The position numbers were made by a program, and so were the translations under genes. The notes beneath the pieces are model-generated. The model was not told the origin of the DNA. It made no database searches and saw only the letters and a program-made list of their open reading frames with translations. From positions 1 through 62,131 of the forward strand of contig CAYQDU010000003.1 of NCBI GenBank assembly GCA_964416275.1: a stretch of DNA of 62,131 bases, read 5' to 3'. Origin of the DNA: an uncultured Anaerolinea sp. GTDB taxonomy: Bacteria > Chloroflexota > Anaerolineae > Anaerolineales > UBA4823. Of the stretch, positions 9,001 to 46,689 are shown one piece after another (the stretch's first letter is position 1; every line of letters begins with the position of its first letter).

Positions 9001-12000
9001 CAAGACCGCTGCCAGGTGACCCGCACCGGCGTCGGCACGGGCGGCAGCACCACCCTGGTCTCAAAGGTGGACCTGTTCGTTACGCCCAATAAATACACCG
9101 TCAACACCCGCGATACGGTCTGGCGCTTCTACGTGGGCAACTTCAGCAGTGTGACCGCCGAAGATGTGATCGTAACCAACACCCTGCCGCTCGGCCATAA
9201 GCTGCAGACGTATGACCTTTCCAGCACCTCGGCTCCCACCAACACGGTCTCGATGATTACCGGCACGCTGCCTTCCGGGCAAGAGGTGGTCACGTTCACC
9301 CTGTCCAGCCTGCCGCCGTATGGCCGCATTCGTTTCGACGTGTACGGTAAGATCGACAGCATCTGCAACCTGCCGACGCGGATCAACATCGCGTTGCTCG
9401 ATCAGTGTGGGATGGTAGGCGAAGGATCGGGCGTATGCCAGGGGCGTAAAGACGCCTTTGTAGACCTGCTGCCCGGCCCGGCTTTCCTGGTGACCAGCAA
9501 CGACCAGACCGCCCACCTGCCGCTGTGCGAAACCGGCTACGTGCGCCTGACGGTCAAAAACTCGTCGGCCAGCGCCGATGAGTTTAATTTCAAGATTACC
9601 GATGTGTTGACCAACGTCACTGTTACCGGGCCGGTGACGGCCACGGTAGTGGACGAAAACGGGCAGATCATCGTCGGCGAGACCTCTGGCCTGCCGCTGC
9701 AGGGGGTGGCGTTTAGTCCCAACATCGTTACCACTGGAAATCAGCAAAACCTGACCTGGGAGCAGAGCATGTTCGCCCCCGGCACGCCCGGCTATGACAT
9801 CTTGCAGCGCCGCCAGGCCAGCGATGTGATTACGATCTTCATGCGGGTGCGCACCGGCTGCACCGGCACCGATGCCCGCGTCCAGTCGTTTGTCGACGCG
9901 CGGGATGTATGCGCTCGCCCGTTGGCAAGCGCCGAAAACGCCAAGACCCTGCTGACCGACGCGCCAGCGTTGAACGCTGTCAAGCGCGGCTATAACGTCA
10001 CCCGCGGCTATCCGCTGACCAACCCGGTCTATGCCTATCCCGGCGACACCCTGCGCTGGGAAGTGGATGTGACCAACGTGGGCGACCAGCACGTGCTGAA
10101 CCTGTGGGTGACCGACACGCTGCCCGCCAACTTCACCTATGCCAACGCCAACCTGGGCGGCGCATACGCCGCCGGGCAGGTGGTCTGGAACCTGACCGGT
10201 ACGCCGGTGCTGAATATCGGCGAAACCAAGACCTTTGTCGTCACCGGCACGGTGACCAACCTGGTGTGCAGCGATACGCAGAACCGGGTTCTGGCGGTGT
10301 TTGGCTGCACCGCCGGCGACCGCTGTTCAGGCTTACCGGCCAACACCGACTTCACCCTGCAAACCCGGCCCAATGCCTTCAGCCTGACCTCCTCCGGCGA
10401 CCTCAGCACCTGCGGCGGACTGGTGACGGTCAACATCAACAACGACGGCGCGCCAGCCGCTAACGTGACCCTGACCGACACGCTGCCCACCGGCTACGTG
10501 TACGAAGCGTTTGTTTCGGCCACCGCCGCGCCGAACGTGCTGCCGGCGGCCGGGGCCGCCAAGCCGGTCTTTGGCTGGACCGGGGCTAACCTGCTGCCGC
10601 GCGGCCTGACCACCCTGGTCTTCCGGGTGCGTAATGCCGCCGCCTCCGGGGCCTGCGCTGCGCCCGGCCTGCCGCTGACCAACCAGACCGACCTGAACAT
10701 GCAGGACGGCTGCGGCAATAACTACGGCGCTGCTAACACTACCTCCAGCGGCTTCAACCTGACCACGCCCAACCTGAGTGTGACCAAGACGCCTGTCACC
10801 CAGTTCCGCAACGTAGGCGACGTAGCCAATTGGACCCTGACGGTGCGCAACACCGGCGCCGCCCCGGCCCCCAACGTGGTCATTACCGACCGGGTGGGCA
10901 GCAACTTCGGTTCGCTGAGCGCCTCGGCTGGTTCGTTTGGCGGCACCTCGGCGGTCATCGTGGGCAACACCATCCACTGGACGCCGGCCATCACGCTGCC
11001 GGTGGGCGGCCAGTGGACGGCTACCGTCAATGGCACGCTCTTGAGCGTCGGCGATAACACCAACCAGGTCACTGCCACCGCTGCCTGCGCCAGCGGCTGC
11101 CAGTACGCCGCGGTCAACACTACCGCTTACGTCACGCTGATCTCGCAGTTCGATAAAGGCCCCAATTCGATTATGACCGGTACGATTGGCGACGTGAAGG
11201 TGTTTACCTTCACGGTGGGCCTGCCGGACGTGGACGGCGTGTATCAAAACCTATCGCTGGTGGATACCCTGCCAGCCGGGTTGGGCTACGTTGGCTCGCG
11301 GGTGGTGTATCAGCAGGATATGGATAACCCCACCCCGCCCGCGCCGGTGATCGTCACCACGCCCAGTTCGGCCCCGGCCTATCTGAGCAGCGGGGTGATC
11401 CAATGGAACCTGGGGACGCTGAACGGCGTGGCTGTGGCTACCGGCGTGATTACCACCGTCATTCGCGACATTCCCACCAACTATGGCAGCCCGCAGGCGG
11501 GGTACGTGCGCCTGACCAACAACCTGAACCTGAGCTACACCGAAGACGGCCAGCCGTATACCTATAACGATACCGCCAGCGCCGATGTATACGAACCGCT
11601 GCTGCACCTGAGCAAGAATTACCGCACCGCGCAGGGCTGCGCCTCGGCCTTGCTGATCGACAACTTCAACGACGGCAACACCCTGGGCTGGACGGTGAGC
11701 GGCGGCGCGCTGGCGCTGAACGGCTACACCTTGCAGATGCCCACCGGGGCCAACCGGCGCGCCCTCGCAGGATCGACCACCTGGGGTGATGCCAGCTTCT
11801 CGGCCTTCGCCCTTTCCACCGGCGTGACCCACGCCACCGACAACGACCTGGGCCTGATCTTGCGCGCCAACAGCGTAAATACCTACTATCGCCTGTACTG
11901 GCGGCGCAACCTGGCCGGAACCACCGGCGCTTACCGCCTGGATCGGGTGGTGGGCGGCACGGCCACGAACCTGGTGAACACGGCCGCCCCGGCCGCCTAC

Positions 12001-15000
12001 GGCCTGAACCGTTGGTATCACCTGGAAGCGCGGGTGCAGGATTACGCCTTGCAGTTCTATATCGACGGGGCGCTGGTTTTGAGCTATACCGACGCCAATG
12101 CCGCCCATCTGGCCGCCGGGCAGAGCGGGTTGTTCACCCAGAACCAGACCACCGCTTACTTCGACGATGTGCTGGCCTCGCGCTATGGGCGCAGCGGCTG
12201 CCTGGTGGGGGCAGGCGATCTGGTCACCTATACCCTGACCATCTCCAACCAGCAGGTCATCACGGCCTACAACCCGCGCCTGGTGGACGTCATCCCGGCC
12301 GGGCTGAGCCTGCAATCCTATAGTTGGAAGAGCGACGACGCCGGAACCAGCCTGAGCGCCGGGCCGACCCCGGTTCCGGGCGCTGCTGGCAGCCTGACCT
12401 GGGACTTCAACCGCCTGGCGCCGCGCGTCCCGTTTGCGGCCAACCGTCACACCGCCATCACCATGACGGTAACGCTGGCGGTTTCCCCGGCTATCACCGT
12501 CAGCCAGCGCCTGGCGAACCAGGCCCACCTGACCTACGACGGCCAGGCCGGGGCGGGGCCGGTGGGCATCCAGCGCGCCTACGATGGCGGCACGCACTCT
12601 AACGGCGTGCGCACGATTGATCCCTACATTCTTAAGTCCAGTTCGCCGGCCAACGCCACGATTGGCGAGCCGGTCTACTTCACCATCACCGTGCCGTCGC
12701 ATCCCATTACGGCCACGCTGTATAACATCACCATCACCGATAATGTACCGGCCAACCTGCTGGTGCTGCCCGGTACGGTGCAGATCGTGGGTGGTACGGG
12801 AGTGGTCAACCAGACCCTGGGCAACAACCTGCGGGTGCTGTTTGGCAGCATCCCGGCTGGGACGGTGGCGTACATTCGCTACACGGCGGTGGTGCGCGAC
12901 GTCCTGGCAAACCAGGAAGGCGTGGTGGTTCCCAACACGGCCACGCTGGCCTGGGGGACGCAGACCACCACCACCCTGCCAGTCAACGTGACCCTGATCG
13001 AACCCAGCCTGGGGATCAGTAAGGTGGTTTCGCCGACCAACGCCGCCCCCGGCCAGATGGTGTTCTACACCGTCTCAGCCTATCACCTGGCGGGCGACAC
13101 CGAGACGGCCTACAACGTGACCATCAGCGATGTAGTTCCGGCCTCCCTGGCCTACCTTCCTGGCTCATGGCACATCGTCAACGGCCCGGCTGGGACGGCC
13201 AGCGACGCCGCCGACCCGACCCTGAGGGCCATCTTCCCGGTCGTTGGTCCGACCTGGACAGCGGCCAACCCGCTGCGCCTGGTGTATGCCGCCCAGGTTC
13301 GCGCCTGGGCCGCCCCCGGAGCGTTGATTACCAACACCGCCCGCCTGACTTACACCAGCACGCCCACCGACACCTACGGCGAGACCCGCGACGGCTCTGG
13401 CGGGGTGGACGATTACTTTGCCAGCCAGACGGCCGACCTGGCCCTGCCTGAAATCAGCGTGACCAAGACCGGGCCGATCACCGTCACTGCTGGCAACCTG
13501 ATTACTTACCTGGTGACGGTGCGCAACGAGGGCCCGTTCGCCGCCCCGGCCATCGTGACCGACACCCTGCCCTTCCAGGTTAGCTTTGTGAGCGCCACGC
13601 CCAGCCAGGGCAGCTGCGTCCATACGTACAATCCCACCGGCGGCCAGTTGGTCTGCAACCTCGGCTCGCTGGCCCCCGGCCAGGCTACCATCCAGGTGGT
13701 AGGGCGGGTGGACCCCAACACGCCGCTGGCCGCCGACCTGACCAACCGGGTGCGGGTGACCACCACCTCCCCAGACGGCGCGACCACCAACAACACCGCC
13801 GAAGTGGATACCGAAGTGTACACCTCGTCGGATGTGGGCCTGAATAAGTCTGGCCCAACTACCGCCATTGCCGGGCAGACCATTACCTATACCATCGCGG
13901 TCAGCAATACCGGCCCCTCCACCGCCCATACGGTAGACATCAAAGACTTGCTGCCGCCGGGCGTGTCTTACGTGGGCGCCAGCGCCAGCCAGGGCCTGTG
14001 CGTGGCCGGAATCTGCCAGTTAGGCGACCTGCCCACCGGGCAGACGGTTCACATTGTGGTGACGGCCACCGTGGGCGCTAACGTGAGCGGCACGCTGGTC
14101 AACACCGCCCAGGCTTTCTCGGTCAGCAGCGACCCGAACCCGGCCAATAACGTCGACACTCAGATCACGACGGTCAGCTCGCTGACCCGCCTGATGATTA
14201 GCAAGGTCGATCTGACCGACCCGGTGTACGCCGGCGACACCTACTTCTACGAGGTGGTCATCACCAACACCGGGCCGAGCGCGGCCCAAAACGTAGTTAT
14301 CTCTGACACGCTGCCGCCTTACGTGCATTACGAAGGCGCCAGCCCAGAGTGCTTCCACGATGGCAGCCCGGTGGGCGGACAAATCACCTGCAACCTGGGG
14401 ACGATGGCTCCCCTGGAAGTGCGCGACTACCTGATCAATGTGCGTGTGTTGAGCGATGTCATCAGCGGCACGGTGGGAATCAACCGGGTTTCGGCCACTA
14501 CCACTACCCCGCTGGCAGCCGGCAGCGTGCTGTCCGACCAGGAACCGACCACTTACCTGCAAAAGCTGGGCAACCCCATCGACTTGAGCTTGCTCAAGAG
14601 CGTGAACCCGGCCAGCGCGGTGGCAGGCAACGGTTTCTTTACCTATCACCTGACGGCCACCAATCACGGCCCGGCTCCGGCCAGCGACGTGATCCTGGTG
14701 GACGCTTACCCGCGTGAATTCAGCTTTATCTCGGCCGTCGCCAGCAATGGGGCGGTGTGTAATCAAGGCATGAGCTGCGCCCTGGGCGCGTTGGCGGTCA
14801 ACGAGACGGTATATATCACCCTGGTAGTGGCTGTGCCTTCGGACGTGCTGGCCGGGGTATATACCAACACCGCCCGCCTGACCAGCCCGGCCCCGGAAAC
14901 CGACCTGACCAATAACGACGCCCAGGCCGCCTCGACGGTAACGACCCTGGCAAACCTGGGCCTGGGCAAGCTGGCGCTTCCCAACCCGGCCACCCCCGGC

Positions 15001-18000
15001 GGCGACCTGACCTATGTCATCACCGTCACTAACACCGGCCCGTCGGATGCGGCCAACGTGACCGTGAGCGACGCCCTGCCGGTGGGCTTCATCCCCACGG
15101 CGATCTACTCCAGCCAGGGCAACTGCGCCGCTTTCCCCTGCAACCTGGGGACGCTCACACCGGGAGCTTCTGCCCTGGTGTGGGTGGTGGGTAAAGTCAG
15201 CCCCAACGCCGCGCCGGGACAGGTGGATAACACCGCCAACGCTGCCAGCAGCACGCCCGGCAGCGGCGCCAGCGACACGGTGATCGTGGGCCTGGCTGGC
15301 CTGGCCGATCTGGCCCTGGTCAAGACCGGTACGCCCACCAGCCTGCCGGGCGGCACGGTCTTCTATACCCTCACCCTGCGCAACCTGGGCCCATCCGACG
15401 CAACCGGGGTGGTCCTGACCGACACCCTGCCGGTCGGGCTGAGTTACGTGAGTATCACCCCGCCGGCTGGCTGCGGCTATCTGCTGGGGCGGATTGTGTG
15501 TACCGTTGGAACCCTGGCGGCTAACGCCCAACGCCAGTTTGTGGTGCAGGCGGTGGTGGACGGCAGCGTGCCGCCCGGCGCCAGCCTGGAAAACCAGGCC
15601 GCGGTGACGGCAACCTCGCCCGACCCCAACCCGTTGAATAACCTCGCCAACGCCGATACCTCCATCCTGGGGCAGGCGGATCTGGTGATTGCCAAGACGC
15701 AGCTCACGGCCAATCCGATCCTGGCCGGGACGCTGGTGACCTATACGATTGTGGTGACCAACACCGGGCCAGGGCTGGCGCGGCAGGTGGACGTGAAAGA
15801 CCAACTGCCGGCCGGGCTGAGCCTGGAACACATCGCGGCCTCGAGCGGTGGGGTGTGCGGTGGGACGGTGTGCCAGTTTGGAGCGCTGCTGCCGGGCGAG
15901 ACGCGCACAATCACGGTGACGGCGCGGGTGGACGAAGACGCCCCGGCCGGGACGGTAACCAACGTGGGTGCGGTGTACTCGGTGGACGAGAGTAACCCGG
16001 GCAACAACACCGCCACCACGACGACGACCCTCGTCACGAGCGCCGACCTGAGCGTGGCGAAGGTGGATTTGAGCGACCCGGTGGAACCGCTGGGTGGGTT
16101 GATCTACCAGTTGGTGGCCAGCAACGCCGGGCCGAGCGCCGCCCAGGGTGTGATCGTGACCGACACGCTGGACGCCAACGTGGTGTTCGTCAACGCCACA
16201 CCGGGCTGTGTCTATGCCGCCGGGCAGGTGGTATGCACGGTGGGAACGCTGGCGGGAGGGGCAAGCGCCTCGTTCCTGGTGGCGGTGACGGCCGGGGATG
16301 TGCCATCTGGGACGCTGCTGCACAATGCAGCGCTGGTGGCCGGGACGACGCCCGACGGCAACCCGACCAACAATCAAACGACGATCACCACGACAGTGCA
16401 AGCCCCCAATGGGCCGAGCGCCGAGGTGGGGATTGCCAAGACCGGCCTTCCGGCGAGCGTGGCGGCTGGCGACGTGGTGACCTACACGCTGACGGTGACC
16501 AACGCCGGGCCGCAGGCGGCCACTAACGTGCGGGTGCTGGAACTGATCCCGGCCGGGACGACGGCGCTGAGCCTGACGGCGGACAACCCGGATGCGGGCG
16601 ACGAACACTGCTCGCTGGGCGGGGCGTGCTACCTGGGGACGGTGTACTCGACCACTGTGGCGACGATCCAGGTGGTGCTGCGGGTGAACCCAGACTATGC
16701 CGGGAACCAGGTGGTGAACACGGCTTCGGTCTCGGCCGACCAGTTCGACCCGCTGCCGGGGAACAACATCGCTTCGGCCGCCACCGATGTGACGCAGGCC
16801 GCCGACCTGCTGCTGGCAAAGAGCGACCTGATGGACCCGGTGCTGGCGGGCGACCTGATCCTGTACCAGGTGTGGGTGACCAACACCGGGCCGTCGCTGG
16901 CCCAGGCGGTGGTGGTGACCGACGCCATCCCGGTTGGGACGGTCTTTGCCGGGGCTTCGCCGGTGTGCGCCGAGAGCAGCGGGATCGTGACCTGCGCCCT
17001 GGGCGACCTGCCGGCCGGCGCGGCGACCTCGGTGTGGGTGCAGGTGCGGGCGGATCAAAGCCTGCCCGACCCGACCGTGGTGACCAACACCGCCCGGGTC
17101 CACAGCAGCACGCCGGATAGCGACCCGAACAACAACGTCGACAGTGAGCCGACGACGGTACATCAATCGACCCTCAACCCGACCGACCTGGCGATTGTCA
17201 AGGGCGATGCGCCCGATCCGGTGATTGCCGGGAACCTGCTGACCTATACCTTAGTGGTAACCAACTACGGCCCGGCCCCCGCCAGCGGGGTGCAGGTGGC
17301 CGACGCGCTGCCGTCTGGAACCAGCCTGGTGAGCGCAATCGCTTCGCAGGGCGTGGGCTGCTATGGCAGCGTGGTGTGCCTGTTGGGCGACCTGGCGGTG
17401 AACGCTACGGCTCACATCACAATTGTGGTGCGCGTCGATCCCAACCAGCAGGTGGCGCTGAACAACCTGGCCCAGGTGTCCAGCACCAGCGTGGATAATA
17501 ATCCCAATAACAACCAGGCTTTTGCCGCCACCCAGGTGGAAACCTCGGCCGACCTGCAGCTAACCAAGACCGGCCCGGTTGCGGCTCAACCGGGCGGCAA
17601 TATCGCCTACCAGATCATCGTCCAAAACCTGGGGCCAAGCGACGCCCAGGCGGTGGTGGTGAGCGATACCCTGCCGCTGGAACTGCAATCGGCGGTCGCC
17701 AGCGCCTCGCAAGGCGCGTGCGCCATTGCGGCCGGCGTGGTGACCTGCAACCTGGGTTCGCTGCCCGCTGGCGGCCAGGCGGTGATCGACATCGCTGGCT
17801 TGCTCGACCCGCACGCCACGGCGGCCTTCGCCAACGCGGCCGAAGTGGAGAGCGCCACCCCCGACCCGAACACGGGCAATAACTGGGACGACGCCCTGAC
17901 CACCCCCACCCCGGGGGCCGATCTGGAACTGCAAAAGACCGCCACCCCCACCGCCCCGGCCGGCGGCGCGATCCTGTACAACCTGCGGGTCTACAATCAC

Positions 18001-21000
18001 GGCATTTCGCAGGCCCAGAACATCGTGGTGACCGACACGCTGCCGGCCGGCATGACCTACGCCAGCGCCAGCCCGGCCTGCGCGTTTACGGCGGGGCAGG
18101 TGATCTGCACCCTGGCCGCGCTGGATGTGAACGCCTCCGTCACCTTTACCATCCTGGTGACGGCCGCCTCCGACATCATCCCCGGCACTAGCCTGGAGAA
18201 CCGGGCCGTGGTTGGCTCCAGCACGCCGGACAGCAACCCAGAGAACAACCATGATAACGCCGATACCAGCATCATCGCCCTGGCAGACCTGGGGATCGAC
18301 AAGCGTACCGTAGCCGACCCGGTGGTGGCGGGCGACCTCGTCACCTACACCATCGTGGTGACCAACTACGGGCCGTCGTTGGCCCAGGCCGTGCAGGTGT
18401 GGGACTTCCTGCCCGCCGGGGTGACCCTGGCAAGCGTCACGCCCAGCCAGGGCATCTGCTCGCTGACGGTGTGTCTGCTGGGCGATCTGGACGTGGGCGC
18501 AACCGCTACCCTGACCCTGACCGGGCGCATCAACCCCAACCTGGCTGCTGGAACGATCCTGCGCAACCGGGCCCAGACCACCAGCGCCACGCCCGACCCC
18601 GGCCCGTATTCCAATACCGACACGGTGACTAACACCACCACCCGCCTGGCCGACCTGAGTCTCGTCAAGACCCACACCGGCCTGATGACCCCCGGCCTGC
18701 CGTTCACCTATCGACTGACCGTCTCGAACCTGGGGCCGTCGCTGGCCTCGGCGGTGGTCGTCACCGACAGTTTGCCGCTGAGCGTAACCTTCGTCTCCAG
18801 CACGGCTTCCTGCCTGCGCACGGCCAGCAACCCCGACATGGTAGCGTGCAGCCTGGGCAACCTGGCCGCCGGCGCCTCTGCCAGCTTCGACCTGCTGGTG
18901 CTGCCCGATGCTCGCCTGACCGCCGGCACGCTGACCAACCTGGCCCAAACCGCCAGCGTCACGCCCGACCCGGAGCCCACCAACAACCAGACCGGCGATC
19001 TGACCACCGTGCAACCGGCGGCCGACCTGCGCCTGTCGAAGAGCGATAACCCCGATCCGGTGGTGGCGGGCCAACTGCTGACCTACACCCTGATCGCCGC
19101 CAACCTGGGGCCGTCGTTGGCCCAGGCGGTGATCGTCACCGACACCCTGCCGCTCTCGCTGACCTACCTGAGCAGCAGCCTGCCGTGTAGCCTGATCGGG
19201 AGCCACCCGCAGGTGATTGCCTGTGCGTTGGGCGATCTGCTGCCAGGGGCCACCCAAACCTTCCAGGTGGTGACGCGGGTTGATCCAGGCGTGCCGCCGG
19301 GCGCCAGCCTGCATAACTACGCCCTGGTGGGCAGCCTCACGCCAGACACCAACCCCACCAATAACGTCGGCAGCGCCGTGACCACCGTCATCGCCCAAAG
19401 CGACCTGGCGGTGGACAAGACCTGTCCGCCCGACCCGCTGATCGCTGGCGGCATCGTCACCTACACGGTGGTGATCTCGAACAGCGGCCCCTCCACCGCC
19501 CAGGATGTGGATGTCAAGGACTTCCTGCCCATTGGGTTGATCCCGTTGGGCGCGCACACCACTGACGGGCAGCCCTGCCTGCCGAACCTGTGCCAGTTGG
19601 GCGATCTGCAGCCGGGCGAAGTGGTCACAATGGTGGTCACCGCCCAGGTAGACCCCAGTCAGCCCATCGAATCGCATCTGGATAACCAGGCCACGGGCTT
19701 TACCGACACCAACGACCCCAACCCTGGCAATAACAGCGATTCGTGCAGCAATATGATCCTGTCGGAAGCTCGCCTGGTGATCGAAAAGCACGACCTGGTG
19801 GACCCGGTGGGCCAGGGCGGCCTGTTGATCTACGCCCTGAACGTGACCAATACCGGTCCCTCCAGCGCCCAAGATGTGACCGTGATCGATACCCTGCCCG
19901 CCCAGGTGACCTACCTGAGCAGCACCGATCACTGTGTGGAAGGCCCGGCCGGCAGCCTGACCTGCTCGCTGGGGACTATCCTGCCCAACACCACCCAGAG
20001 CTTCTTGGTGACGGTGCAGGTGCCGGTGGACGTATACAGCGGCACCATCCTGCACAACCTGGCCGAAGTCAGCAGTAGCACGCCGCTGACAGACACCTCG
20101 ATCCTGACCGATAGCGAAGATACCCTGGTGATCGAACCGCCCGTGCCGCCGGCCGACCTGTCGATCGTCAAGACCGAGAACCCGGCCGTGGCGGTAGCCG
20201 GACGGGATGACGTGACCTATCATCTGCAGGTGGTCAATCACGGCCCCGGCCGGGCCACTGACGTGGAAGTGCTCGACCCGCTGCCCGCCGGACTGACCTT
20301 CGTCAGCGCCCAGCCAAGCCAGGGCTTCTGCTGGAACGCCATCCAATGCTCGCTGGGTGTGTTGGAAGTCAACGCCTCGGCCATGATTACCGTGACGGCC
20401 CACGTCAACGCCGATGTGCTGACCGGGACGCTGATTGCCAATACGGCCATCGTACGCGGCTCGCAGCCCGACCCTGACCCAACCAACAATACCAGCACCA
20501 CCACGCTCCAGATCATTACGGCGGCCGATCTAACCATCGTCAAGCTCGATCAGCCCGACCCGGCCACGCCCGGCGAGCTGATGACTTACACCCTGGCGAT
20601 CACCAATCACGGGCCGTCGGACGCCCAGAACGTGTTGGTGACCGATCCCTTGCCGCCGCAGGTCAGCTTTGTGGGCGCCCTCCCGGCCAACAGCGCCGGG
20701 CCAAACCCACTGACCTGGAACCTGGGGGCGCTGGCCGCCGGACAGACCGTCCACATCTTGCTGTGGGCGCGGGTCGATCCGAGCGTAACAGCCCCGTTCA
20801 CCAACACGGCCCTGGTCGGCTCCAGCACGCCGGAGATCAACCCGACCGATAACAGCTCTTCGACTACCACCCAGGTCGAGCCGCAGGCCGATCTGTCGCT
20901 GGCGAAGGATGGACAGCCGCACCTGGCCCTGAATGGCAGCGTTGTGACCTACACCCTGACGGTGCATAACCTGGGGCCGTCCGACGTGCAGAACGCGGTA

Positions 21001-21936
21001 GTCACCGACTGGCTGCCGGGCGAGGTGATCTTCGTCTCGGCCCAGCCCGTCCAGGTCGGCGGGCCGAACCCGCTCACCTGGAACCTGGGGACTCTGCCGG
21101 TCAACGCCACCCGCCAGATCACGGTAGTGGTGCGAGTGACCGACTGGGCCACCCAGAACTTCACCAACCTTGCCCAGGTCGATAGCAGCACGCCCGACCC
21201 TGACCCGAACAACAATCAGGATGACGAGCTGACCTACATGAACGGCGTGGCCGACCTGTCGATTGTCAAGGAGGCCCTGCCCAACCCGGTGCTGCCCGAG
21301 TCGGAGATGTACTACCTGCTGACGGTGCATAACGCCGGGCCATCGCCGGCCCAGGATGTGGTGGTGAGCGATACGCTGCCGGCCGAGGTGCGCCTGATTT
21401 CGGCCTCGCCCACCGCCGCCAGCGGCCCGCGCCCGTTCGTCTGGAACCTGGGGACGCTGCAGGTGGGCGAAACCCGCCAGATCACCCTGACGGTCTTCGT
21501 CGAGGGCTGGGCCAACGGAGCCTTTACCAACACGGCCGTAGTCGGCTCGTCTACGCCCGACCCTGACCCGGAGGATAATACCTCCACCTCGACCGTGGTG
21601 GTTGGCACGCCCACCGGGCTGACCCTGGCCGGTGTGAGCGCCGTCCCGGCCGGGCCGGGCCAGGTGCGGCTGGAATGGACGACCCTCGCCGAGGGCAACG
21701 CCCAGGGCTTCCAGGTTTACCGCTCGGCCAGCCGCGACTTCGCCTCGGCCGAACTGGTGCAGGTCGTCTCGCTGCAAGGGGCCGGGGCGCACTACCAGGC
21801 CCTGGATGTCCCGCCGGCCGCCGGGGTGTGGTACTACTGGCTGGCAACGGTGGACGCCTCCGGGCGCATAACCCAACCGGCTGTTTTGATGGTTTCGGTC
21901 TACTGGCAGTACCTGCCGGTATTGAGAAAGGAGTAG
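6085..21936 (+). CDS. Giant (5283 aa) secreted DUF11/'conserved repeat domain' surface protein with an inserted lectin-like domain, a C-terminal Fn3/Ig-like domain and a terminal YLPVLRK motif
   Basis: Long Sec-type signal (basic N-region, LFNLVVAWTMLLSQVFPLSVALA). 22 clear tandem ~120-aa repeats (DLxxxK...G..vTYtl.vtN.GPs.A..V.v.D.LP...C...C.lG.L...N.A) between ~13440 and 21600, plus about eight divergent repeats upstream. Consistent GC3-rich codon usage; GGAGG ribosome-binding site at the start. Confidence 0.9.
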   Translation: MDSKYSIRFVLGRLQKAARRTSGRALRLFNLVVAWTMLLSQVFPLSVALAAGLDAPVGPAARPNDPFASLQGAAGEWEASPAPTLSARSLPGWWQPAAAPVEGLNQNLAPAWLKPESPAAQAPAAAALGGGLTPGWLNAAETAAVETANSSLGSTLTPGWLGAAPGGPQASGARGPLKAPGVCPAAANLALNLILPDYTISRGNAAGDVYTLTVRNTSAISVPEVSLLIDPNAGFYYLAGSATASSSVSGTLTLSAPPANTAPDAAFTLTPLGAPIPPQKTLQPGEIITLTFRLATDANAASGQQLFASLQSGSPASTFCKSTVRNVPTARGNLVVEKSPTVQNGSYGEIKTWNVTLKNTGLGMVYGGQFADVAGPGYIGLNVAPAITPVDLAPSQMALYTVTAQINACTNLTNTVSAWWSIGNSDGTATLANPLEDGVDILYLLSEPGVKVEMGGLPAQTYCGALSADIPITVTSLGPGPARNLSLIAQTGGVSISTSDPHWSQAGDTFTYLGGSPVGSLLAHQVVTFTLHVTSPRLCNSQTLAVDFTPHFQDACQLLDYSGVTGSASVLTANDAPSLELIKSGPSGTVLAGDIFTYEVHISGNNREMIVAPGVVVTDVVPANLVIQNVSTTGGPFVQAGQAITWTLPATATPGPYSETLYIKVRVPNQGELSCAAPLGITNIAYARAQGCAQCAPMVVSDTLTNRLNDYQPGLGASITRVTPPVELCAPPTTFSNLIDITNGITWANTIFSDTLGLGLLSQPLHVVAGSVKVLVNGADRTADVATTLGPPLRIDLSAIGTYSNTAQIAITYQVTASLGTIPFNSSEQTIYYPAEFRLGGSPRSGCPGGDLAYAGTEVRLVQGVLDFTVTPGDVLACHVNNVLLTVSGMNNNTLTNHMQVTFQADPNDIFTPTHYTLGGSFAGLTPTVLKVGNVVTFTFPTGQDYDGVGTIVFPLFRPCGVETTLQAGVVYQDRCQVTRTGVGTGGSTTLVSKVDLFVTPNKYTVNTRDTVWRFYVGNFSSVTAEDVIVTNTLPLGHKLQTYDLSSTSAPTNTVSMITGTLPSGQEVVTFTLSSLPPYGRIRFDVYGKIDSICNLPTRINIALLDQCGMVGEGSGVCQGRKDAFVDLLPGPAFLVTSNDQTAHLPLCETGYVRLTVKNSSASADEFNFKITDVLTNVTVTGPVTATVVDENGQIIVGETSGLPLQGVAFSPNIVTTGNQQNLTWEQSMFAPGTPGYDILQRRQASDVITIFMRVRTGCTGTDARVQSFVDARDVCARPLASAENAKTLLTDAPALNAVKRGYNVTRGYPLTNPVYAYPGDTLRWEVDVTNVGDQHVLNLWVTDTLPANFTYANANLGGAYAAGQVVWNLTGTPVLNIGETKTFVVTGTVTNLVCSDTQNRVLAVFGCTAGDRCSGLPANTDFTLQTRPNAFSLTSSGDLSTCGGLVTVNINNDGAPAANVTLTDTLPTGYVYEAFVSATAAPNVLPAAGAAKPVFGWTGANLLPRGLTTLVFRVRNAAASGACAAPGLPLTNQTDLNMQDGCGNNYGAANTTSSGFNLTTPNLSVTKTPVTQFRNVGDVANWTLTVRNTGAAPAPNVVITDRVGSNFGSLSASAGSFGGTSAVIVGNTIHWTPAITLPVGGQWTATVNGTLLSVGDNTNQVTATAACASGCQYAAVNTTAYVTLISQFDKGPNSIMTGTIGDVKVFTFTVGLPDVDGVYQNLSLVDTLPAGLGYVGSRVVYQQDMDNPTPPAPVIVTTPSSAPAYLSSGVIQWNLGTLNGVAVATGVITTVIRDIPTNYGSPQAGYVRLTNNLNLSYTEDGQPYTYNDTASADVYEPLLHLSKNYRTAQGCASALLIDNFNDGNTLGWTVSGGALALNGYTLQMPTGANRRALAGSTTWGDASFSAFALSTGVTHATDNDLGLILRANSVNTYYRLYWRRNLAGTTGAYRLDRVVGGTATNLVNTAAPAAYGLNRWYHLEARVQDYALQFYIDGALVLSYTDANAAHLAAGQSGLFTQNQTTAYFDDVLASRYGRSGCLVGAGDLVTYTLTISNQQVITAYNPRLVDVIPAGLSLQSYSWKSDDAGTSLSAGPTPVPGAAGSLTWDFNRLAPRVPFAANRHTAITMTVTLAVSPAITVSQRLANQAHLTYDGQAGAGPVGIQRAYDGGTHSNGVRTIDPYILKSSSPANATIGEPVYFTITVPSHPITATLYNITITDNVPANLLVLPGTVQIVGGTGVVNQTLGNNLRVLFGSIPAGTVAYIRYTAVVRDVLANQEGVVVPNTATLAWGTQTTTTLPVNVTLIEPSLGISKVVSPTNAAPGQMVFYTVSAYHLAGDTETAYNVTISDVVPASLAYLPGSWHIVNGPAGTASDAADPTLRAIFPVVGPTWTAANPLRLVYAAQVRAWAAPGALITNTARLTYTSTPTDTYGETRDGSGGVDDYFASQTADLALPEISVTKTGPITVTAGNLITYLVTVRNEGPFAAPAIVTDTLPFQVSFVSATPSQGSCVHTYNPTGGQLVCNLGSLAPGQATIQVVGRVDPNTPLAADLTNRVRVTTTSPDGATTNNTAEVDTEVYTSSDVGLNKSGPTTAIAGQTITYTIAVSNTGPSTAHTVDIKDLLPPGVSYVGASASQGLCVAGICQLGDLPTGQTVHIVVTATVGANVSGTLVNTAQAFSVSSDPNPANNVDTQITTVSSLTRLMISKVDLTDPVYAGDTYFYEVVITNTGPSAAQNVVISDTLPPYVHYEGASPECFHDGSPVGGQITCNLGTMAPLEVRDYLINVRVLSDVISGTVGINRVSATTTTPLAAGSVLSDQEPTTYLQKLGNPIDLSLLKSVNPASAVAGNGFFTYHLTATNHGPAPASDVILVDAYPREFSFISAVASNGAVCNQGMSCALGALAVNETVYITLVVAVPSDVLAGVYTNTARLTSPAPETDLTNNDAQAASTVTTLANLGLGKLALPNPATPGGDLTYVITVTNTGPSDAANVTVSDALPVGFIPTAIYSSQGNCAAFPCNLGTLTPGASALVWVVGKVSPNAAPGQVDNTANAASSTPGSGASDTVIVGLAGLADLALVKTGTPTSLPGGTVFYTLTLRNLGPSDATGVVLTDTLPVGLSYVSITPPAGCGYLLGRIVCTVGTLAANAQRQFVVQAVVDGSVPPGASLENQAAVTATSPDPNPLNNLANADTSILGQADLVIAKTQLTANPILAGTLVTYTIVVTNTGPGLARQVDVKDQLPAGLSLEHIAASSGGVCGGTVCQFGALLPGETRTITVTARVDEDAPAGTVTNVGAVYSVDESNPGNNTATTTTTLVTSADLSVAKVDLSDPVEPLGGLIYQLVASNAGPSAAQGVIVTDTLDANVVFVNATPGCVYAAGQVVCTVGTLAGGASASFLVAVTAGDVPSGTLLHNAALVAGTTPDGNPTNNQTTITTTVQAPNGPSAEVGIAKTGLPASVAAGDVVTYTLTVTNAGPQAATNVRVLELIPAGTTALSLTADNPDAGDEHCSLGGACYLGTVYSTTVATIQVVLRVNPDYAGNQVVNTASVSADQFDPLPGNNIASAATDVTQAADLLLAKSDLMDPVLAGDLILYQVWVTNTGPSLAQAVVVTDAIPVGTVFAGASPVCAESSGIVTCALGDLPAGAATSVWVQVRADQSLPDPTVVTNTARVHSSTPDSDPNNNVDSEPTTVHQSTLNPTDLAIVKGDAPDPVIAGNLLTYTLVVTNYGPAPASGVQVADALPSGTSLVSAIASQGVGCYGSVVCLLGDLAVNATAHITIVVRVDPNQQVALNNLAQVSSTSVDNNPNNNQAFAATQVETSADLQLTKTGPVAAQPGGNIAYQIIVQNLGPSDAQAVVVSDTLPLELQSAVASASQGACAIAAGVVTCNLGSLPAGGQAVIDIAGLLDPHATAAFANAAEVESATPDPNTGNNWDDALTTPTPGADLELQKTATPTAPAGGAILYNLRVYNHGISQAQNIVVTDTLPAGMTYASASPACAFTAGQVICTLAALDVNASVTFTILVTAASDIIPGTSLENRAVVGSSTPDSNPENNHDNADTSIIALADLGIDKRTVADPVVAGDLVTYTIVVTNYGPSLAQAVQVWDFLPAGVTLASVTPSQGICSLTVCLLGDLDVGATATLTLTGRINPNLAAGTILRNRAQTTSATPDPGPYSNTDTVTNTTTRLADLSLVKTHTGLMTPGLPFTYRLTVSNLGPSLASAVVVTDSLPLSVTFVSSTASCLRTASNPDMVACSLGNLAAGASASFDLLVLPDARLTAGTLTNLAQTASVTPDPEPTNNQTGDLTTVQPAADLRLSKSDNPDPVVAGQLLTYTLIAANLGPSLAQAVIVTDTLPLSLTYLSSSLPCSLIGSHPQVIACALGDLLPGATQTFQVVTRVDPGVPPGASLHNYALVGSLTPDTNPTNNVGSAVTTVIAQSDLAVDKTCPPDPLIAGGIVTYTVVISNSGPSTAQDVDVKDFLPIGLIPLGAHTTDGQPCLPNLCQLGDLQPGEVVTMVVTAQVDPSQPIESHLDNQATGFTDTNDPNPGNNSDSCSNMILSEARLVIEKHDLVDPVGQGGLLIYALNVTNTGPSSAQDVTVIDTLPAQVTYLSSTDHCVEGPAGSLTCSLGTILPNTTQSFLVTVQVPVDVYSGTILHNLAEVSSSTPLTDTSILTDSEDTLVIEPPVPPADLSIVKTENPAVAVAGRDDVTYHLQVVNHGPGRATDVEVLDPLPAGLTFVSAQPSQGFCWNAIQCSLGVLEVNASAMITVTAHVNADVLTGTLIANTAIVRGSQPDPDPTNNTSTTTLQIITAADLTIVKLDQPDPATPGELMTYTLAITNHGPSDAQNVLVTDPLPPQVSFVGALPANSAGPNPLTWNLGALAAGQTVHILLWARVDPSVTAPFTNTALVGSSTPEINPTDNSSSTTTQVEPQADLSLAKDGQPHLALNGSVVTYTLTVHNLGPSDVQNAVVTDWLPGEVIFVSAQPVQVGGPNPLTWNLGTLPVNATRQITVVVRVTDWATQNFTNLAQVDSSTPDPDPNNNQDDELTYMNGVADLSIVKEALPNPVLPESEMYYLLTVHNAGPSPAQDVVVSDTLPAEVRLISASPTAASGPRPFVWNLGTLQVGETRQITLTVFVEGWANGAFTNTAVVGSSTPDPDPEDNTSTSTVVVGTPTGLTLAGVSAVPAGPGQVRLEWTTLAEGNAQGFQVYRSASRDFASAELVQVVSLQGAGAHYQALDVPPAAGVWYYWLATVDASGRITQPAVLMVSVYWQYLPVLRKE

Positions 21937-21938
21937 CC

Positions 21939-24866
21939 ATGCCCGTCAAATCGATCCAATCTCGATTAAGCGGCGGTGTTTTGTGGCGAGGCGTGCGCCT
22001 GGCGTTGATGGCGGCTGCGTTGATCTTGCCCCCCGGCCTGGGGCTGGCCTCGGGCCGGGCGGCGGCGGTTGAGCCGCCCGCCGCGCCGCTGGCGCAGGTC
22101 GCCGCCGATGCTTCGGGTGTGACCCTGACCTGGGAAGCGCCCGATCTGCAGATCGAAACCCTGGCCGGCGGCGACCTGCGCCTGAGCGTGGCCGGTTTCT
22201 CGAACCAGGAGACTCCCGGCCAGCCGCGCCTGCCGCTGGCAAGCGCCCTGGTGGCCCTGCCGCCCGGCGCAGCCCCGCGCCTGGATATACTGGACGAGCC
22301 GGAGACCTTTCAACCTGCCGCCGCTCCGCTGGAACTGGCCCCCTACCCGGCCGGCGTGACGCTCGACGCAGCGGGCGCGCCCCTGGCTGCTCGCACAGGG
22401 CCGGGCGCAAGCGATCTGAGCGCCGCTCGCCCGGCCCTTGACCACGCCGTGGTATGGGAGCCGCTGGGCGTGCTGCGCGGGGTGCGCCTGGCGCGGGTCA
22501 GCTTCTACCCCGTCCGGCCGGCTGCCGGCGGGCTGCTGCGGGTCAGGCGAGTCACCGCCCGCCTGGACTTTGGCCTGCCGCCCACCGCCGCCCCGGCCGC
22601 CGCTCGCCTGGCGGGCGACCCGCTGATCGAGGCGGTGCGCCAGATGGTGGTCAACCCGCAGCAGGTTCAGCCGGCGGCGCGGCTGGCCGAAGCCCGGCCG
22701 GCGGCTGGCAGCCCGGTCGTCTGGTATATCGAAGTCGTCCAGACCGGACTGACTGCCCTGGATTACGCCGACCTGCTGGCCGCCGGATACCCGGTAGATT
22801 CGGTTAACCCCGCTCACCTGCACCTCCTGCACGATGGGAGCGAAGTAGACGCCGAATGGGACGGCGACGCCGATGGCCGCTTCGAGGCCGGCGAGCGCCT
22901 GCTGTTCTACGCCGACCCGCACTCCAACCGGTGGGCCAACTTTGACACCTACGCCCTGGTAGAAACCGACACGGTCGGAGCGCGCCTGGCTTCTCGTCCG
23001 GCCAACCCGGCCGGGGCGCTGCCCGGACGCATCTTCGTCACGCAAACTTTTGAACAGAACCGCATCTACACCCCCAAGTGTTATTGCGGCTCGCTGCCTC
23101 TGGGCCGGGATGGCGAACGCTGGGCCTGGCTGGACCTGTCGCTGGGAGGCGCTAACCCGGTCAAGGCCCAGGCCGCCCTGGCCGACGTAGACATTACGCA
23201 ACCGGCCCGGCTGACCGTGTATCTGCTCAGCTATACCGAGGCGATCCAGAATCCCGATCACAAAGTGCAGATTTTCTGGAACGCCACCCTGTTGGGCGAG
23301 GAGAGCTGGAACGGTAAGCAGGCCAAAGCCTTTACCTATGACCTGCACGCCGGGCAGGTGGTGAACGGCCAGAACGAACTGGCCCTCAACTTGCCCGGCC
23401 TGAACGGGGTGAGCCGGGAGGGCGCCTGGCTGGACGCTTTCAGCGTGCAGTATGCTCTGAATACCGCCCTGGCCGCGCCCGGCGCGGCGCTGGGTTTCAC
23501 CGGCGAGGCGGTGCAGCGGGCATACAGCTTGAAGCTCGGCGCAACAGCCGGCCTGCGCGCCTATCAGGTGACCGACCCGCTTCACCCCCTGCGCCTGACC
23601 GACGTGCAGGCGACTGGGAACAACGTGGCATTCAAAGACCCCGATCCGATCGGCGCCCAGCGCTACCTGGTGACCAACGCCGATGGCGTGCTAAAGCCTC
23701 GGGGACTGAGGGCCGCCCAACCGCTGCCCGTGGTGGGCCAGGGCGGTTTCAATGGCGCGGCTTATCTGATCCTCACCCGGCCAGAGTTTGCCGCCCCGCT
23801 GCAAGAGCTGGTTGCCGTGCGCTCCGGGCAGGCTGGCAGCGCTTACCTGCAAACCCTCCAGCCGATCTACGATACCTATGCCTATGGCCGCCCAGACCCG
23901 CAGGCTATTCGCGATTACCTGGACGCCGCCTATCATACCTGGCCCACCCCGCCGCTGTATGTTGTATTAGGCGGAGATGGCACCTATGACCCCAAGCAAT
24001 ATCTGCCCACCAGCCACGCCAGCTATCTGCCGCCCTACCTGGGCGTGGTTGATCCCTGGGCAGGCGAGACGGCCGCTGATAACCGCTTCGTAACCGTGGA
24101 CGGCGACGACAAACTGCCGGATATGCTCATCGGGCGGCTGCCGATCAACTCGCTGGCCGAAGCCCGCACCCTGGTAGACAAAATCCTGGCCTACGAGGGC
24201 CAGTCGGCCGGAGCCGACTGGACTCGCCGCCTGACCCTGGTGGGCGACGACGCCGACACATCGGGCAACTTCATTTCCTACCTGGAACAGATCGCCAACG
24301 GGCTGATTGCCCCGCCCTACATCGCTGATAAGCTGTATTACCAGCCGCCGGTTACGCCAGAGCAAATGCACGCCAATACCGTGCAGCGCTTCCAGGATGG
24401 CTCGCTGCTGACCCTGTTCTTTGGCCACTCGTCGTATCATCAATGGGCCATTGAATACTTCTTCCATGTCACCGACGTGACCTCGCTGACCAACGGCGCT
24501 CGCCTGCCGGTGGTGCTGGAGATGACCTGCTTTACCAGCGAGTTCCAACTGCCCGACCTGACCGCCCTGGACGAGGCCCTGCTGCGCCAGCCAGGCGGCG
24601 GGGCCGTGGCGACCTGGGGCATGAGCGGGCTGGGCCTTTCGCAGGGCCACGCGGCCCTGGCCCAGGGCTTTGTCCAGGATGTGGATGCCGCCACTCTGCC
24701 GCTGGTGGGCAAACTGGCCCTGCAGGGCAAGCTGAACCTGGCGACCCACCTGCCCGCCTACGACTATATGCTCGATACGTTCACGTTGCTGGGCGACCCG
24801 GCTTTGCAGCTTCACGTCTCGACCCTGCCGCTGCGCAGCATCTACCTGCCGGTGGTGGCGCGCTAG
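21939..24866 (+). CDS. Secreted C25-family (gingipain/PorU-like) cysteine peptidase with C25 propeptide-like N-terminus and terminal IYLPVVAR motif
   Basis: The AAGGAG ribosome-binding site overlaps the giant gene's stop; ATG at 21939. Signal peptide ending AAA. PGQPRLP...ALPPG (propeptide-like), YLILTRPEF, PQAIRDYL..AY..W..PPLYVVLGGDG, DGDDKLPDMLIGRLP, FFGHSS (catalytic His), EMTCFTSEF (catalytic Cys), GGGAVATWG, FTLLGDPAL. Confidence 0.85.
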   Translation: MPVKSIQSRLSGGVLWRGVRLALMAAALILPPGLGLASGRAAAVEPPAAPLAQVAADASGVTLTWEAPDLQIETLAGGDLRLSVAGFSNQETPGQPRLPLASALVALPPGAAPRLDILDEPETFQPAAAPLELAPYPAGVTLDAAGAPLAARTGPGASDLSAARPALDHAVVWEPLGVLRGVRLARVSFYPVRPAAGGLLRVRRVTARLDFGLPPTAAPAAARLAGDPLIEAVRQMVVNPQQVQPAARLAEARPAAGSPVVWYIEVVQTGLTALDYADLLAAGYPVDSVNPAHLHLLHDGSEVDAEWDGDADGRFEAGERLLFYADPHSNRWANFDTYALVETDTVGARLASRPANPAGALPGRIFVTQTFEQNRIYTPKCYCGSLPLGRDGERWAWLDLSLGGANPVKAQAALADVDITQPARLTVYLLSYTEAIQNPDHKVQIFWNATLLGEESWNGKQAKAFTYDLHAGQVVNGQNELALNLPGLNGVSREGAWLDAFSVQYALNTALAAPGAALGFTGEAVQRAYSLKLGATAGLRAYQVTDPLHPLRLTDVQATGNNVAFKDPDPIGAQRYLVTNADGVLKPRGLRAAQPLPVVGQGGFNGAAYLILTRPEFAAPLQELVAVRSGQAGSAYLQTLQPIYDTYAYGRPDPQAIRDYLDAAYHTWPTPPLYVVLGGDGTYDPKQYLPTSHASYLPPYLGVVDPWAGETAADNRFVTVDGDDKLPDMLIGRLPINSLAEARTLVDKILAYEGQSAGADWTRRLTLVGDDADTSGNFISYLEQIANGLIAPPYIADKLYYQPPVTPEQMHANTVQRFQDGSLLTLFFGHSSYHQWAIEYFFHVTDVTSLTNGARLPVVLEMTCFTSEFQLPDLTALDEALLRQPGGGAVATWGMSGLGLSQGHAALAQGFVQDVDAATLPLVGKLALQGKLNLATHLPAYDYMLDTFTLLGDPALQLHVSTLPLRSIYLPVVAR

Positions 24867-27320: not shown

Positions 27321-27411
27321 CGGACCTCGTTTCGTAGTTACGGGATGCGGATTTTCACGGATGGGCATGGATAGAGATTCTTGCACAGATCACAAAGGCC
27401 CCTAAGAACCA

Positions 27412-27448
27412 GGCAGCTCCCCACCTAAGCGGGGTGAAGTTGGCTGGC
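27412..27448 (-). repeat. R1 REP-like module
   Basis: Reverse complement GCCAGCCAACTTCACCCCGCTTAGGTGGGGAGCTGCC matches the copies at 4466, 25818, 33748 and 47113. Confidence 0.7.
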
Positions 27449-27517
27449 GAGCGAAGAAGGGAGCCGTACCTCAAGAATCACAAAGAGAAGAAAAGGCAAG
27501 AAATCTTCACCCGTGGC

Positions 27518-28699: not shown

Positions 28700-28701
28700 G
28701 G

Positions 28702-30147: not shown

Positions 30148-30162
30148 AGCGGGTTCCTCCTT

Positions 30163-32007: not shown

Positions 32008-32097
32008 GGTTGTTTTCTCTGCGCCTGAAATGCGGCGCGAGAGCGTTGGGCCGGCGCAGCCGGCCCAACGCCCATGTGCATCATCGTTGCCCGGGGC

Positions 32098-33558: not shown

Positions 33559-33607
33559 AAGTTTTCTCTTTCTGTTTTTGCTGCTTGCAGCGGCGAAGCC
33601 GGCGTCG

Positions 33608-33784
33608 CTCCATTAAACCGTGGAACAGGCATGGCGCTTTTCGAGCGCCTTCCAAAGGAGATGTTATGTGGGTTTTGGCGCCCTTTGTGCGACAAAACCC
33701 ACGCTTAACGCTCTTTCCAGGCGAACGAAGCTCGCCAAGCGCAGCTTGCCAGTCACCTCCGCCACGATTGCGTGGGGAGCTGCC
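33608..33784 (+). repeat. R2 element (copy A) followed by an R1 module, inside the MttB cluster
   Basis: CTCCATTAAACCGTGGAACAGGCATGGCGC...GCGCC...GGGTTTTGGCGC-CCTTTGT-GCGACAAAACCC...CTCTTTCCAGGCG is near-identical to 46987-47115. Confidence 0.85.
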
Positions 33785-33814
33785 GCGAAGCCAGCTGCAA
33801 GCAGCAAAAGATTT

Positions 33815-35266: not shown

Positions 35267-35278
35267 GCGTTTGTCCTT

Positions 35279-35926: not shown

Positions 35927-35970
35927 AGATGATCTCCTTAACAAGATTGGGATGGTGCGGTCGGTTGTAA

Positions 35971-39275: not shown

Positions 39276-39288
39276 AGGTTTACCTGGC

Positions 39289-45090
<5,802 letters not shown>

Positions 45091-45144
45091 GTTAACTCCT
45101 CATCAACAATCAAACCGGTATAGTTTAGCCGCCTGGACCCGCTT

Positions 45145-46614: not shown

Positions 46615-46689
46615 AGTCTCCCTGGCAAGATGCCCCATGCAAATAGATTGAAGCGCCTGGAACCGCTAAAATCTGGCGAAGTCTGACCG

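Follow-up and report, generated by a model that had tools for sequence, protein, structure and literature searches.

In the secretion system of type IX (T9SS), the surface C25 enzyme PorU removes the C-terminal domain (CTD) of exported cargo and attaches anionic lipopolysaccharide (A-LPS) by a sortase-like reaction; its cleavage specificity is loose, the preferred residues being small at P1 and polar at P1', and PorU itself appears among the listed CTD cargo (PMC5445135). A C-terminal tag on varied secreted passengers is also found in the sortase-LPXTG, exosortase-PEP-CTERM, rhombosortase-GlyGly-CTERM and archaeosortase-PGF-CTERM systems. To our knowledge, Chloroflexota are not known for a T9SS or for an outer membrane with lipopolysaccharide. 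Here we describe, in a stretch of 62,131 nucleotides from an uncultured Anaerolinea sp. of that phylum (contig CAYQDU010000003.1, positions 1 to 62,131; "the window" throughout), a giant predicted surface protein, the cargo, whose gene is followed by that of a PorU-like C25 peptidase. Both proteins end in a short linear motif, the YLP tail, and in the cargo this tail follows a domain of the fibronectin type III (Fn3) fold. Together with the C25 gene, the module formed by domain and tail suggests that bacteria lacking type IX secretion have a so far undescribed system for C-terminal sorting or processing; the lack of T9SS genes was assessed within the 62-kb window.

As in T9SS cargo (Por_Secre_tail, PF18962), a homologous Fn3-like domain (hhalign probability 99.9%) lies directly ahead of the C-terminal signal, the passengers are varied surface proteins, and a multi-domain C25 peptidase of PorU type is associated with them. 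The peptidase bears the same kind of signal as its presumed substrates, and PorU, too, figures among the listed CTD cargo. The signal itself differs, being an 11-residue linear tail instead of a beta-sandwich CTD of about 75 residues, and the C25 gene stands beside each cargo gene in dedicated pairs, whereas the only T9SS cargo locus inspected (L082) has no C25 gene within 6 kb. No T9SS component was seen among the open reading frames (ORFs) of the window. With dedicated pairs of sorting enzyme and target the module has in common that the enzyme gene adjoins that of its target, that the tag is fixed relative to the C-terminus and that its end residue is basic. It departs from such tags in having no membrane-spanning helix and just 3-4 hydrophobic residues after the LP, and the enzyme, itself tagged, belongs to family C25 and is neither a C60 sortase nor a polytopic exosortase or archaeosortase. 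Full-text literature searches of limited coverage returned no description of the tail motif, nor of C25/PorU-like sorting enzymes in Chloroflexi. What would be new here, with no description in the searched literature, is C-terminal processing of the PorU/sortase type that uses a minimal linear tag and operates outside the T9SS.

A C-terminal tail common to cargo and peptidase

The cargo gene (6085..21936, + strand, 15.9 kb; from the ORF list and its translation) encodes 5283 residues. A basic-hydrophobic signal or anchor sequence at the N-terminus is followed by a head with a ConA/LamG-like domain (weak Pfam matches to LamG and 3-keto-disaccharide hydrolase), by about 30 DUF11 domains in Pfam stretches of 1+6+13+10, and by the Fn3-like domain with its tail. 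DUF11, since renamed CLIPPER, builds the stalks of fibrillar adhesins and is a CnaA-like domain with isopeptide bonds (bioRxiv 10.1101/2025.04.25.650565). The cargo resembles the adhesins of that report in its succession of signal peptide, head, long tandem CLIPPER stalk and C-terminal sorting or anchoring end, and differs from them in that the end is the Fn3-plus-YLP module and not LPXTG, an OmpA-like domain or a T9SS CTD. On this architecture it is predicted to be a secreted surface protein of the fibrillar-adhesin type. An orthologue of 5281 residues (P0006) is 52% identical to it across the Fn3-plus-tail module. Within the stalk, at 20843-21249, one contig of DNA run X1 lacks 405 nucleotides, exactly one 135-residue DUF11/CLIPPER repeat, which reflects either variation in repeat number between strains or an assembly collapse.

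The module comprises the last 108 residues of the cargo, the Fn3-fold domain plus a short unstructured tail. Nucleotides 21601-21900 translate in frame 1 to VGTPTGLTLAGVSAVPAGPGQVRLEWTTLAEGNAQGFQVYRSASRDFASAELVQVVSLQGAGAHYQALDVPPAAGVWYYWLATVDASGRITQPAVLMVSV (residues 5173-5272), which is exactly the peptide quoted in the initial annotation of this DNA. The Fn3-fold domain is the last folded unit; after it come just YWQYLPVLRKE (21901..21933, +) and the stop codon, so that 11 residues, and not the roughly 20 first attributed to the tail, follow the last predicted strand. The core, YLPVL-R, fits the pattern [YF]LP[LVI][VI]x[RK]-COOH. The last cargo codons (K-E) also form a Shine-Dalgarno sequence, AAGGAG, and the stop codon TAG (21934-21936) lies 2 nucleotides ahead of the ATG at 21939 with which the C25 gene begins (coupling site 21928..21941, +, by direct reading). 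The same 2-nucleotide spacing recurs in the orthologous locus L080, and the arrangement as read is that of translationally coupled genes.

The peptidase ends in STLPLRSIYLPVVAR (SIYLPVVAR). Its tail, IYLPVVAR-COOH (24840..24863, +), is predicted to be disordered and follows the end pattern of its orthologues, 49 of 54 complete sequences finishing in ...LLGDPAxRxNxTxVPWAxxxYLP[LI][VI]xR. Among cargo proteins the tail is carried by 78 of 84, with the consensus L-P-Y-R-[LIV]-Y-L-P-[LVI]-[VI]-[LIV]-[RK]-COOH, and 63 of these 78 stop 4-6 residues past the proline. Other ORFs of at least 100 residues in the related loci have it in 7 cases out of 3945, and in the window the cargo and C25 genes are the only two tail-bearing ORFs. 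At the level of sequence, the tail is the element that cargo and peptidase have in common, a point under-weighted in the initial annotation.

Since both the C25 proteins and several surface proteins have the tail without the domain, the two parts of the module are separable. The surface proteins in question are found among the seven other tail-bearing ORFs; an ORF resembling S15 peptidases has the tail as well. One of the surface proteins is an 879-residue DUF7507/DUF11/LamG protein (L013:15969-18605, - strand) that ends in IAKIYLPVVLKSP; another is an ice-binding-like protein (L074:2091-2909) that ends in LIYLPMMIR.

Two other accounts of the motif were rejected. It is not the last strand of the sandwich: strand G stops at ...LMVSV, the tail is modelled as coil, and proteins without the domain carry it as well. 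Nor does it reflect conservation at the nucleotide level, imposed by the overlap of the last codons with the Shine-Dalgarno sequence of the next gene, as the C25 genes share the amino-acid motif despite unrelated DNA downstream. The classical tripartite signal of the LPXTG or PEP-CTERM type was not found either, with just 4-6 residues between the LP motif and the stop.

On balance, we judge it more likely than not that the tail serves as a signal for sorting or recognition, common to the cargo and to a dedicated PorU-like peptidase that processes it, with the Fn3 domain as an envelope-proximal spacer.

A PorU-like C25 peptidase next to the cargo

The gene at 21939..24866 (+) encodes a C25 cysteine peptidase of 975 residues with a signal peptide, identified as PorU-like with Pfam, NCBIfam, AlphaFold2 (AF2) and Foldseek; the gene call is confirmed by P0203. 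It is assigned to peptidase family C25 by its match to Peptidase_C25 (PF01364; 5.6e-78, 263 bits) and by a catalytic dyad, His830 (nt 24426-24428) and Cys864 (nt 24528-24530), which aligns to the His and Cys of RgpB and is invariant in 37 homologues. The NCBIfam PorU model (NF033707) is matched at 202 bits (E 9e-60) over positions 63-736 of 1095, and by this measure the protein is PorU-related and not a PorU equivalog. Foldseek ranks PorU (6za2) first among the matches to the AF2 model (predicted local distance difference test, pLDDT, 84.5), with E 9e-25 and an alignment of 837 columns. The alignments to gingipains span 370-400 columns, in the catalytic domain only, with E 5e-17 or weaker. The modelled architecture is PorU-like beyond the catalytic domain, in keeping with the link to the PorU/T9SS world that had initially been proposed.

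The tail could instead be a mere localisation or anchoring motif, mediating for example non-covalent binding to an envelope polymer, S-layer or sheath, with the C25 enzyme a co-localised maturation or nutritional protease that has no part in sorting. Its occurrence on enzymes and structural proteins alike, including the S15 peptidase-like ORF and ice-binding-like proteins, would be expected in that case, as would a tail that is disordered and exposed in both AF2 models. Some C25 homologues carry the propeptide domain PF08126, as gingipains do, and environmental studies regard Chloroflexi C25 enzymes as extracellular peptidases. The whole-length architecture of the enzyme, PorU-like and not gingipain-like, argues for a role in sorting, and the gene order described below does so too; we think a purely localising tail unlikely.

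Conservation of the pair in Anaerolineae

The distribution of the module was surveyed by pattern matching plus tblastn in one genome per GTDB species, with 109 matches confirmed and 79 loci kept, all of them from metagenome-assembled genomes (MAGs). The loci belong to the orders Thermoflexales, Anaerolineales, Caldilineales, Ardenticatenales and Promineifilales, all of the class Anaerolineae, and named taxa with the module include Ca. Amarolinea, Leptofilum, Brachythrix, Roseilinea and Litorilinea; one locus comes from a MAG labelled "Acidobacteria". Among the module-bearing MAGs are some assigned to Litorilinea aerophila and to a Thermoflexus species, both cultivable relatives. Because the survey patterns were drawn from nine closer sequences and are biased to canonical copies of the WWYWL type, this taxonomic breadth is a lower bound.

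We define the "Fn3-YLP tail / C25" module by a [YF]LP[LVI][VI]x[RK] motif 4-9 residues from the stop, a PTAV-type Fn3 domain and a tail-bearing C25 gene downstream. The window has all three, the domain occupying 21610-21900, the tail 21901-21933 and the C25 gene, which ends IYLPVVAR, 21939-24866. Anaerolineae-class Chloroflexota conserve this order, in which a varied passenger with Fn3 domain and tail precedes a C25 gene that bears the tail as well. Downstream sequence of at least 1 kb was available for 81 module genes of the 79 loci; a full-length C25 orthologue on the same strand is directly adjacent in 43 of them and lies within 3 kb in 16 more, for a total of 59 of 81 downstream. It stands upstream of a module gene in a few loci only, in cargo-C25-cargo clusters (L021, L041 and L078). 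Such one-to-one, same-strand and often coupled adjacency with varied cargo is typical of enzyme-substrate pairs and would be unexpected for a nutritional protease whose tail served localisation alone.

The pairing takes other forms as well. In L009 (6581-10369) a single ORF joins a C25 domain to eight PKD domains, the Fn3 module and a tail of the YFP/YLP type, so that a peptidase can carry the whole module and not the tail alone, and one MAG holds two separate module-C25 pairs (L015 and L080). The passengers of the module include DUF11/CLIPPER repeats, SdrD-B repeats and ice-binding-like domains. Varied passengers with a conserved C-terminal unit are the signature of a sorting tag, which is consistent with the tail as a signal read by the paired peptidase.

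The Fn3-fold domain and its kinship with T9SS cargo

The domain ahead of the tail (residues 5176-5272; 21610..21900, +), which we call "pre-anchor" on the evidence of AF2, Foldseek and hhalign, begins with PTGLTL (family consensus PTAVxL). AF2 with a 48-sequence alignment gives a seven-strand sandwich (pLDDT 87.4; predicted template modelling score 0.77), with strands at 12-22, 25-34, 38-46, 55-61, 68-73, 79-89 and 94-104 of the 115-residue query and its last 11 residues as coil. The top Foldseek matches are Fn3 domains of CD148, Dscam and fibronectin ED-B and the N-terminal domain of PelI (template modelling scores 0.5-0.64, probability 1.00); no T9SS CTD is among the matches listed. The predicted sandwich can be superposed on solved Fn3 domains, which places it in the Fn3 superfamily. 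In view of this model and of its Fn3 neighbours, the fold is Fn3 and not strictly Ig: of the initial label "penultimate Ig domain", the assignment to the pre-CTD subfamily is upheld by profile comparison, and "Ig" gives way to a generic Fn3 fold with generic Fn3 structural matches.

Family models do not capture the domain. It has no Pfam match at E<=10, fn3 (PF00041) included, and no NCBIfam match at E<=1; none of 42 aligned Chloroflexota family members matches PF00041 at E<=1, and no Pfam or NCBIfam family was found for them. A word-indexed homologue search with a 110-residue query of the domain returned no match, and sequence and profile searches of the PDB gave marginal Fn3 matches alone (profile E 0.03-0.2); no entry in Pfam, NCBIfam or the PDB covers the Fn3 subfamily or the tail. 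Exhaustive phmmer comparison with 1.84e9 representative proteins produced 1769 matches at E<=1e-3, 86 of them at E<=1e-10, and in score the resemblance to these relatives is far beyond chance. With generic Fn3 (PF00041) the domain shares the seven-strand fold, the tryptophan of strand B, Y-x-D and the YYW/YYR "tyrosine corner" region, and a few of its relatives also match PF00041. What sets the subfamily apart are the motifs PTAVxLxxFxA (strand A), W-x-T-A-x-E-x-D-N-x-G-F-N-L-Y-R and WWYWLxDVDTxG.

The relatives fall into two classes. Those with a single copy at the extreme C-terminus follow the consensus PTAVxLxxFxA...QVxLxWxTAxExDNxGFNLYRA...Y.Y.DT.P..G.WWYWL.DVDT.G.ET.HGPV, then 8-20 variable residues and the tail. 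The others are multi-copy proteins with the consensus LPVELSSFTA..V.L.WTT.SE.NN.GF.V.RS...Y.F.D...YYYWL/YYRL..VD.dG, and nine of them (P0003, P0004, P0022, P0043, P0044, P0078, P0084, P0085 and P0131) have a Pfam-verified CTD (Por_Secre_tail, CHU_C or FlgD_ig). In the CTD-bearing proteins there are 2-4 tandem copies, the last of which stops 10-30 residues ahead of the CTD; P0004 is named in NCBI as a T9SS type A sorting domain-containing protein of Puia sp., a member of the Bacteroidota. A hidden Markov model built from the alignment of Chloroflexota copies only (A1) scores CTD-adjacent copies at 40-80 bits each over their full length, strand A included (model positions 5-110; measured on P0003, P0004, P0043, P0044, P0078, P0084, P0085 and P0131), against 8-30 bits for generic Fn3 repeats, in which strand A is mostly absent. 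In hhalign, A1 matches the CTD-adjacent copies with probability 99.9% (E 9.5e-31, score 170) and generic Fn3 repeats with 98.5% (E 2.9e-15, score 85). By these profiles the window domain is a member of a specific Fn3 subfamily found ahead of T9SS CTDs, as had been supposed at the outset, and the profile-profile comparison then suggested thus favours T9SS-adjacent copies over generic Fn3.

The module is not itself a CTD. This candidate was rejected on the hhalign probability of 0.7% against an alignment of ten Pfam-verified T9SS CTDs and on the lack of any Pfam or NCBIfam CTD match (PF18962/TIGR04183), in agreement with the initial claim that no T9SS CTD is present.

A survey of what follows the domain, also proposed in the initial annotation, covered the 150 best representatives, a ranking that favours relatives of the window protein. 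After the last subfamily-grade copy of the 72 proteins with at least one such copy come a [YF]LP tail in 43, a T9SS CTD in 13, a transmembrane (TM) helix with a basic cluster in 3, no further residues in 2 and other sequence in 11. The association with T9SS CTDs was borne out, though not as an exclusive one, and the subfamily looks like a general pre-anchor domain that stands beside whichever C-terminal sorting or anchoring device a lineage uses. In a group of relatives (P0160, P0188, P0192, P0198, P0079, P0102 and P0146; loci L083-L085) the YLP tail is replaced by PTAV(T/G)LxG(V/L)xA, an Ala/Gly-rich TM helix and RRR, an end that resembles a classical tripartite sorting signal in shape. Strand A of the window domain (PTGLTLAGVSA) is closely similar to this post-domain motif, and no C25 neighbour was found on the short contigs of these variants.

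These comparisons bear on whether the cargo simply ends in an ordinary Fn3 spacer, its likeness to T9SS cargo and its C25 neighbour being coincidental. The structural neighbours are indeed generic Fn3 domains, the PDB profile matches are marginal, and two T9SS-type proteins have copies that also match Pfam fn3. Against coincidence stand a profile-profile score for T9SS-adjacent copies twice that for generic repeats, a C25 gene downstream of 59 of the 81 module genes and upstream in few loci, and the concentration of the tail in C25 and cargo proteins relative to other ORFs. The matches are not confined to generic Fn3 domains devoid of a T9SS or C25 connection, both the profile kinship and the synteny being specific, and a coincidental association is so improbable that we consider it effectively excluded.

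The N-terminal edge of the domain was initially singled out, as a PTGLTL junction, for a candidate cleavage or recognition site. PTAV at this edge (21610-21621 in the window) is 90-97% conserved in the Chloroflexota modules of alignment A1, against 46% for P and 76% for V at these columns in the tandem copies of T9SS type. If the whole Fn3-plus-tail unit were a removable, CTD-like signal, the C25 enzyme would cut at PT(A/G)(V/L), the stalk would be released or transferred and about 110 residues discarded. In addition to the conservation of PTAV, this would suit the TM-anchored variants, whose second PTAV(T/G)LxGxxA lies between domain and TM helix, the classical position of a sorting motif; it would also suit the G|T junction of the window, which fits the loose preference of PorU at P1 (small residue) and P1' (polar residue) (PMC5445135), and the tail-only proteins, C25 included, which have no PTAV and so would escape cleavage. 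PorU likewise keeps its own CTD. The PTGLTL junction is, however, the canonical start of Fn3 strand A, and a proline opening that strand is a general feature of Fn3 domains. The motif recurs at every internal tandem copy of T9SS cargo, where terminal cleavage is impossible, and the homologous domain of that cargo, which sits upstream of the region where PorU cuts, would stay on the protein. As the module is also unlike T9SS CTDs, and the peptidase shares the tail and not PTAV, we find removal of the entire module distinctly improbable. PTGLTL/PTAV may nonetheless have a role beyond the start of strand A, as a candidate site.

Proposed mechanism

Under the reading that we favour, in which the tail is the signal common to the cargo and its dedicated peptidase, both proteins would be brought to one site in the envelope after Sec export, by virtue of the tail as a C-terminal sorting or recognition signal. 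There the peptidase would process the C-terminus of the cargo in the manner of PorU or a sortase, cutting in or near the variable linker or the tail, and cleavage might be coupled with transfer of the cargo to an envelope acceptor. The mature cargo would still carry the Fn3 domain as the base of its stalk, next to the envelope, in the way that T9SS cargo retains the homologous domain, and sorting and processing would run without the T9SS translocon.

Several observations weigh against this proposal. At about 7 hydrophobic residues, the tail is too short to span a membrane, unlike known tripartite sorting signals. The C25 protein scores far under the NCBIfam cutoff for PorU (420 bits), 22 of the 81 module genes have no C25 gene within 3 kb, and several cargo-C25 pairs per genome do not follow the T9SS logic of one PorU for many cargo proteins. 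Since the search patterns derive from Chloroflexota copies, the confinement to Anaerolineae may in part reflect a bias of the survey. Metatranscriptome contigs across the locus are few and of low depth, so that RNA evidence for expression is thin, and cleavage, attachment and surface localisation of the cargo are all predictions from sequence.

A more specific version would have a T9SS-independent sorting system in Anaerolineae, in which a PorU-like C25 transpeptidase reads [YF]LPxx[RK]-COOH, usually on a PTAV-type Fn3 domain, and covalently attaches giant isopeptide-bonded adhesins, along with further surface proteins, to the envelope or to the sheath. We offer this version tentatively, as possible but doubtful. 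If it is true, PorU and the pre-CTD Fn3 domain, which together make up the sortase half of the T9SS, would have an evolutionary history separate from that of the translocon.

Other genes of the window

The window has a GC content of about 65%, and a search of sequencing runs found its sequence almost solely in wastewater and biofilm metagenomes. The gene that immediately follows the C25 gene (24874..25758, +) encodes a secreted protein of 294 residues, with a linker rich in Pro and Thr and a C-terminal domain that contains Cys. It matches no Pfam or NCBIfam family, and an exact-sequence look-up found no record of it. The gene is possibly part of the C25 operon. A role as a conserved third component was rejected: L080, the closest orthologous locus, has a gene in this position whose product is 52% identical, and the other 79 loci lack it. 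Upstream of the cargo gene, at 4729..5940 (+), is a gene for a membrane-anchored thioredoxin/redoxin-like protein (Pfam Redoxin, AhpC-TSA and Thioredoxin), with a homologue also upstream of the giant orthologue in L018. Its linkage with the module system is possible but weak; the protein may help disulfide formation in the cargo, which has 70 cysteines.

Farther downstream, four apparent MttB-family methyltransferase paralogues (25899-36720, - strand), one confirmed by Pfam and three recognised by eye, are clustered with a B12-binding corrinoid protein, a GntR/FCD regulator and, by eye, an apparent M20-type amidohydrolase and an apparent S9 prolyl oligopeptidase. By its gene content this cluster looks like a quaternary-amine demethylation locus. 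At 38148-46638 (- strand) a 1933-residue nonribosomal peptide synthetase of two modules (A-T-C-A-T-TE) is flanked by a GT4 glycosyltransferase gene and a polysaccharide-biosynthesis (flippase-like) gene, and genes for a NurA nuclease and a HerA-type (DUF87) ATPase form an adjacent pair at 48301-52036.

Conclusions

The co-occurrence of a PorU-type sortase with the pre-CTD Fn3 domain, here without CTDs, suggests that the processing module and the translocon of the T9SS are evolutionarily separable. As no model in Pfam or NCBIfam exists for the Fn3 subfamily or for the tail, the C-termini of thousands of proteins are annotated only as "hypothetical". Filamentous Anaerolineae (Ca. Amarolinea, Promineifilum and Leptofilum) dominate activated sludge, and the attachment of proteins to Chloroflexota surfaces is, as far as we know, poorly understood. 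The conserved pair of tag and enzyme offers a testable handle on this process, and would allow the surface proteome of these bacteria to be predicted from sequence.

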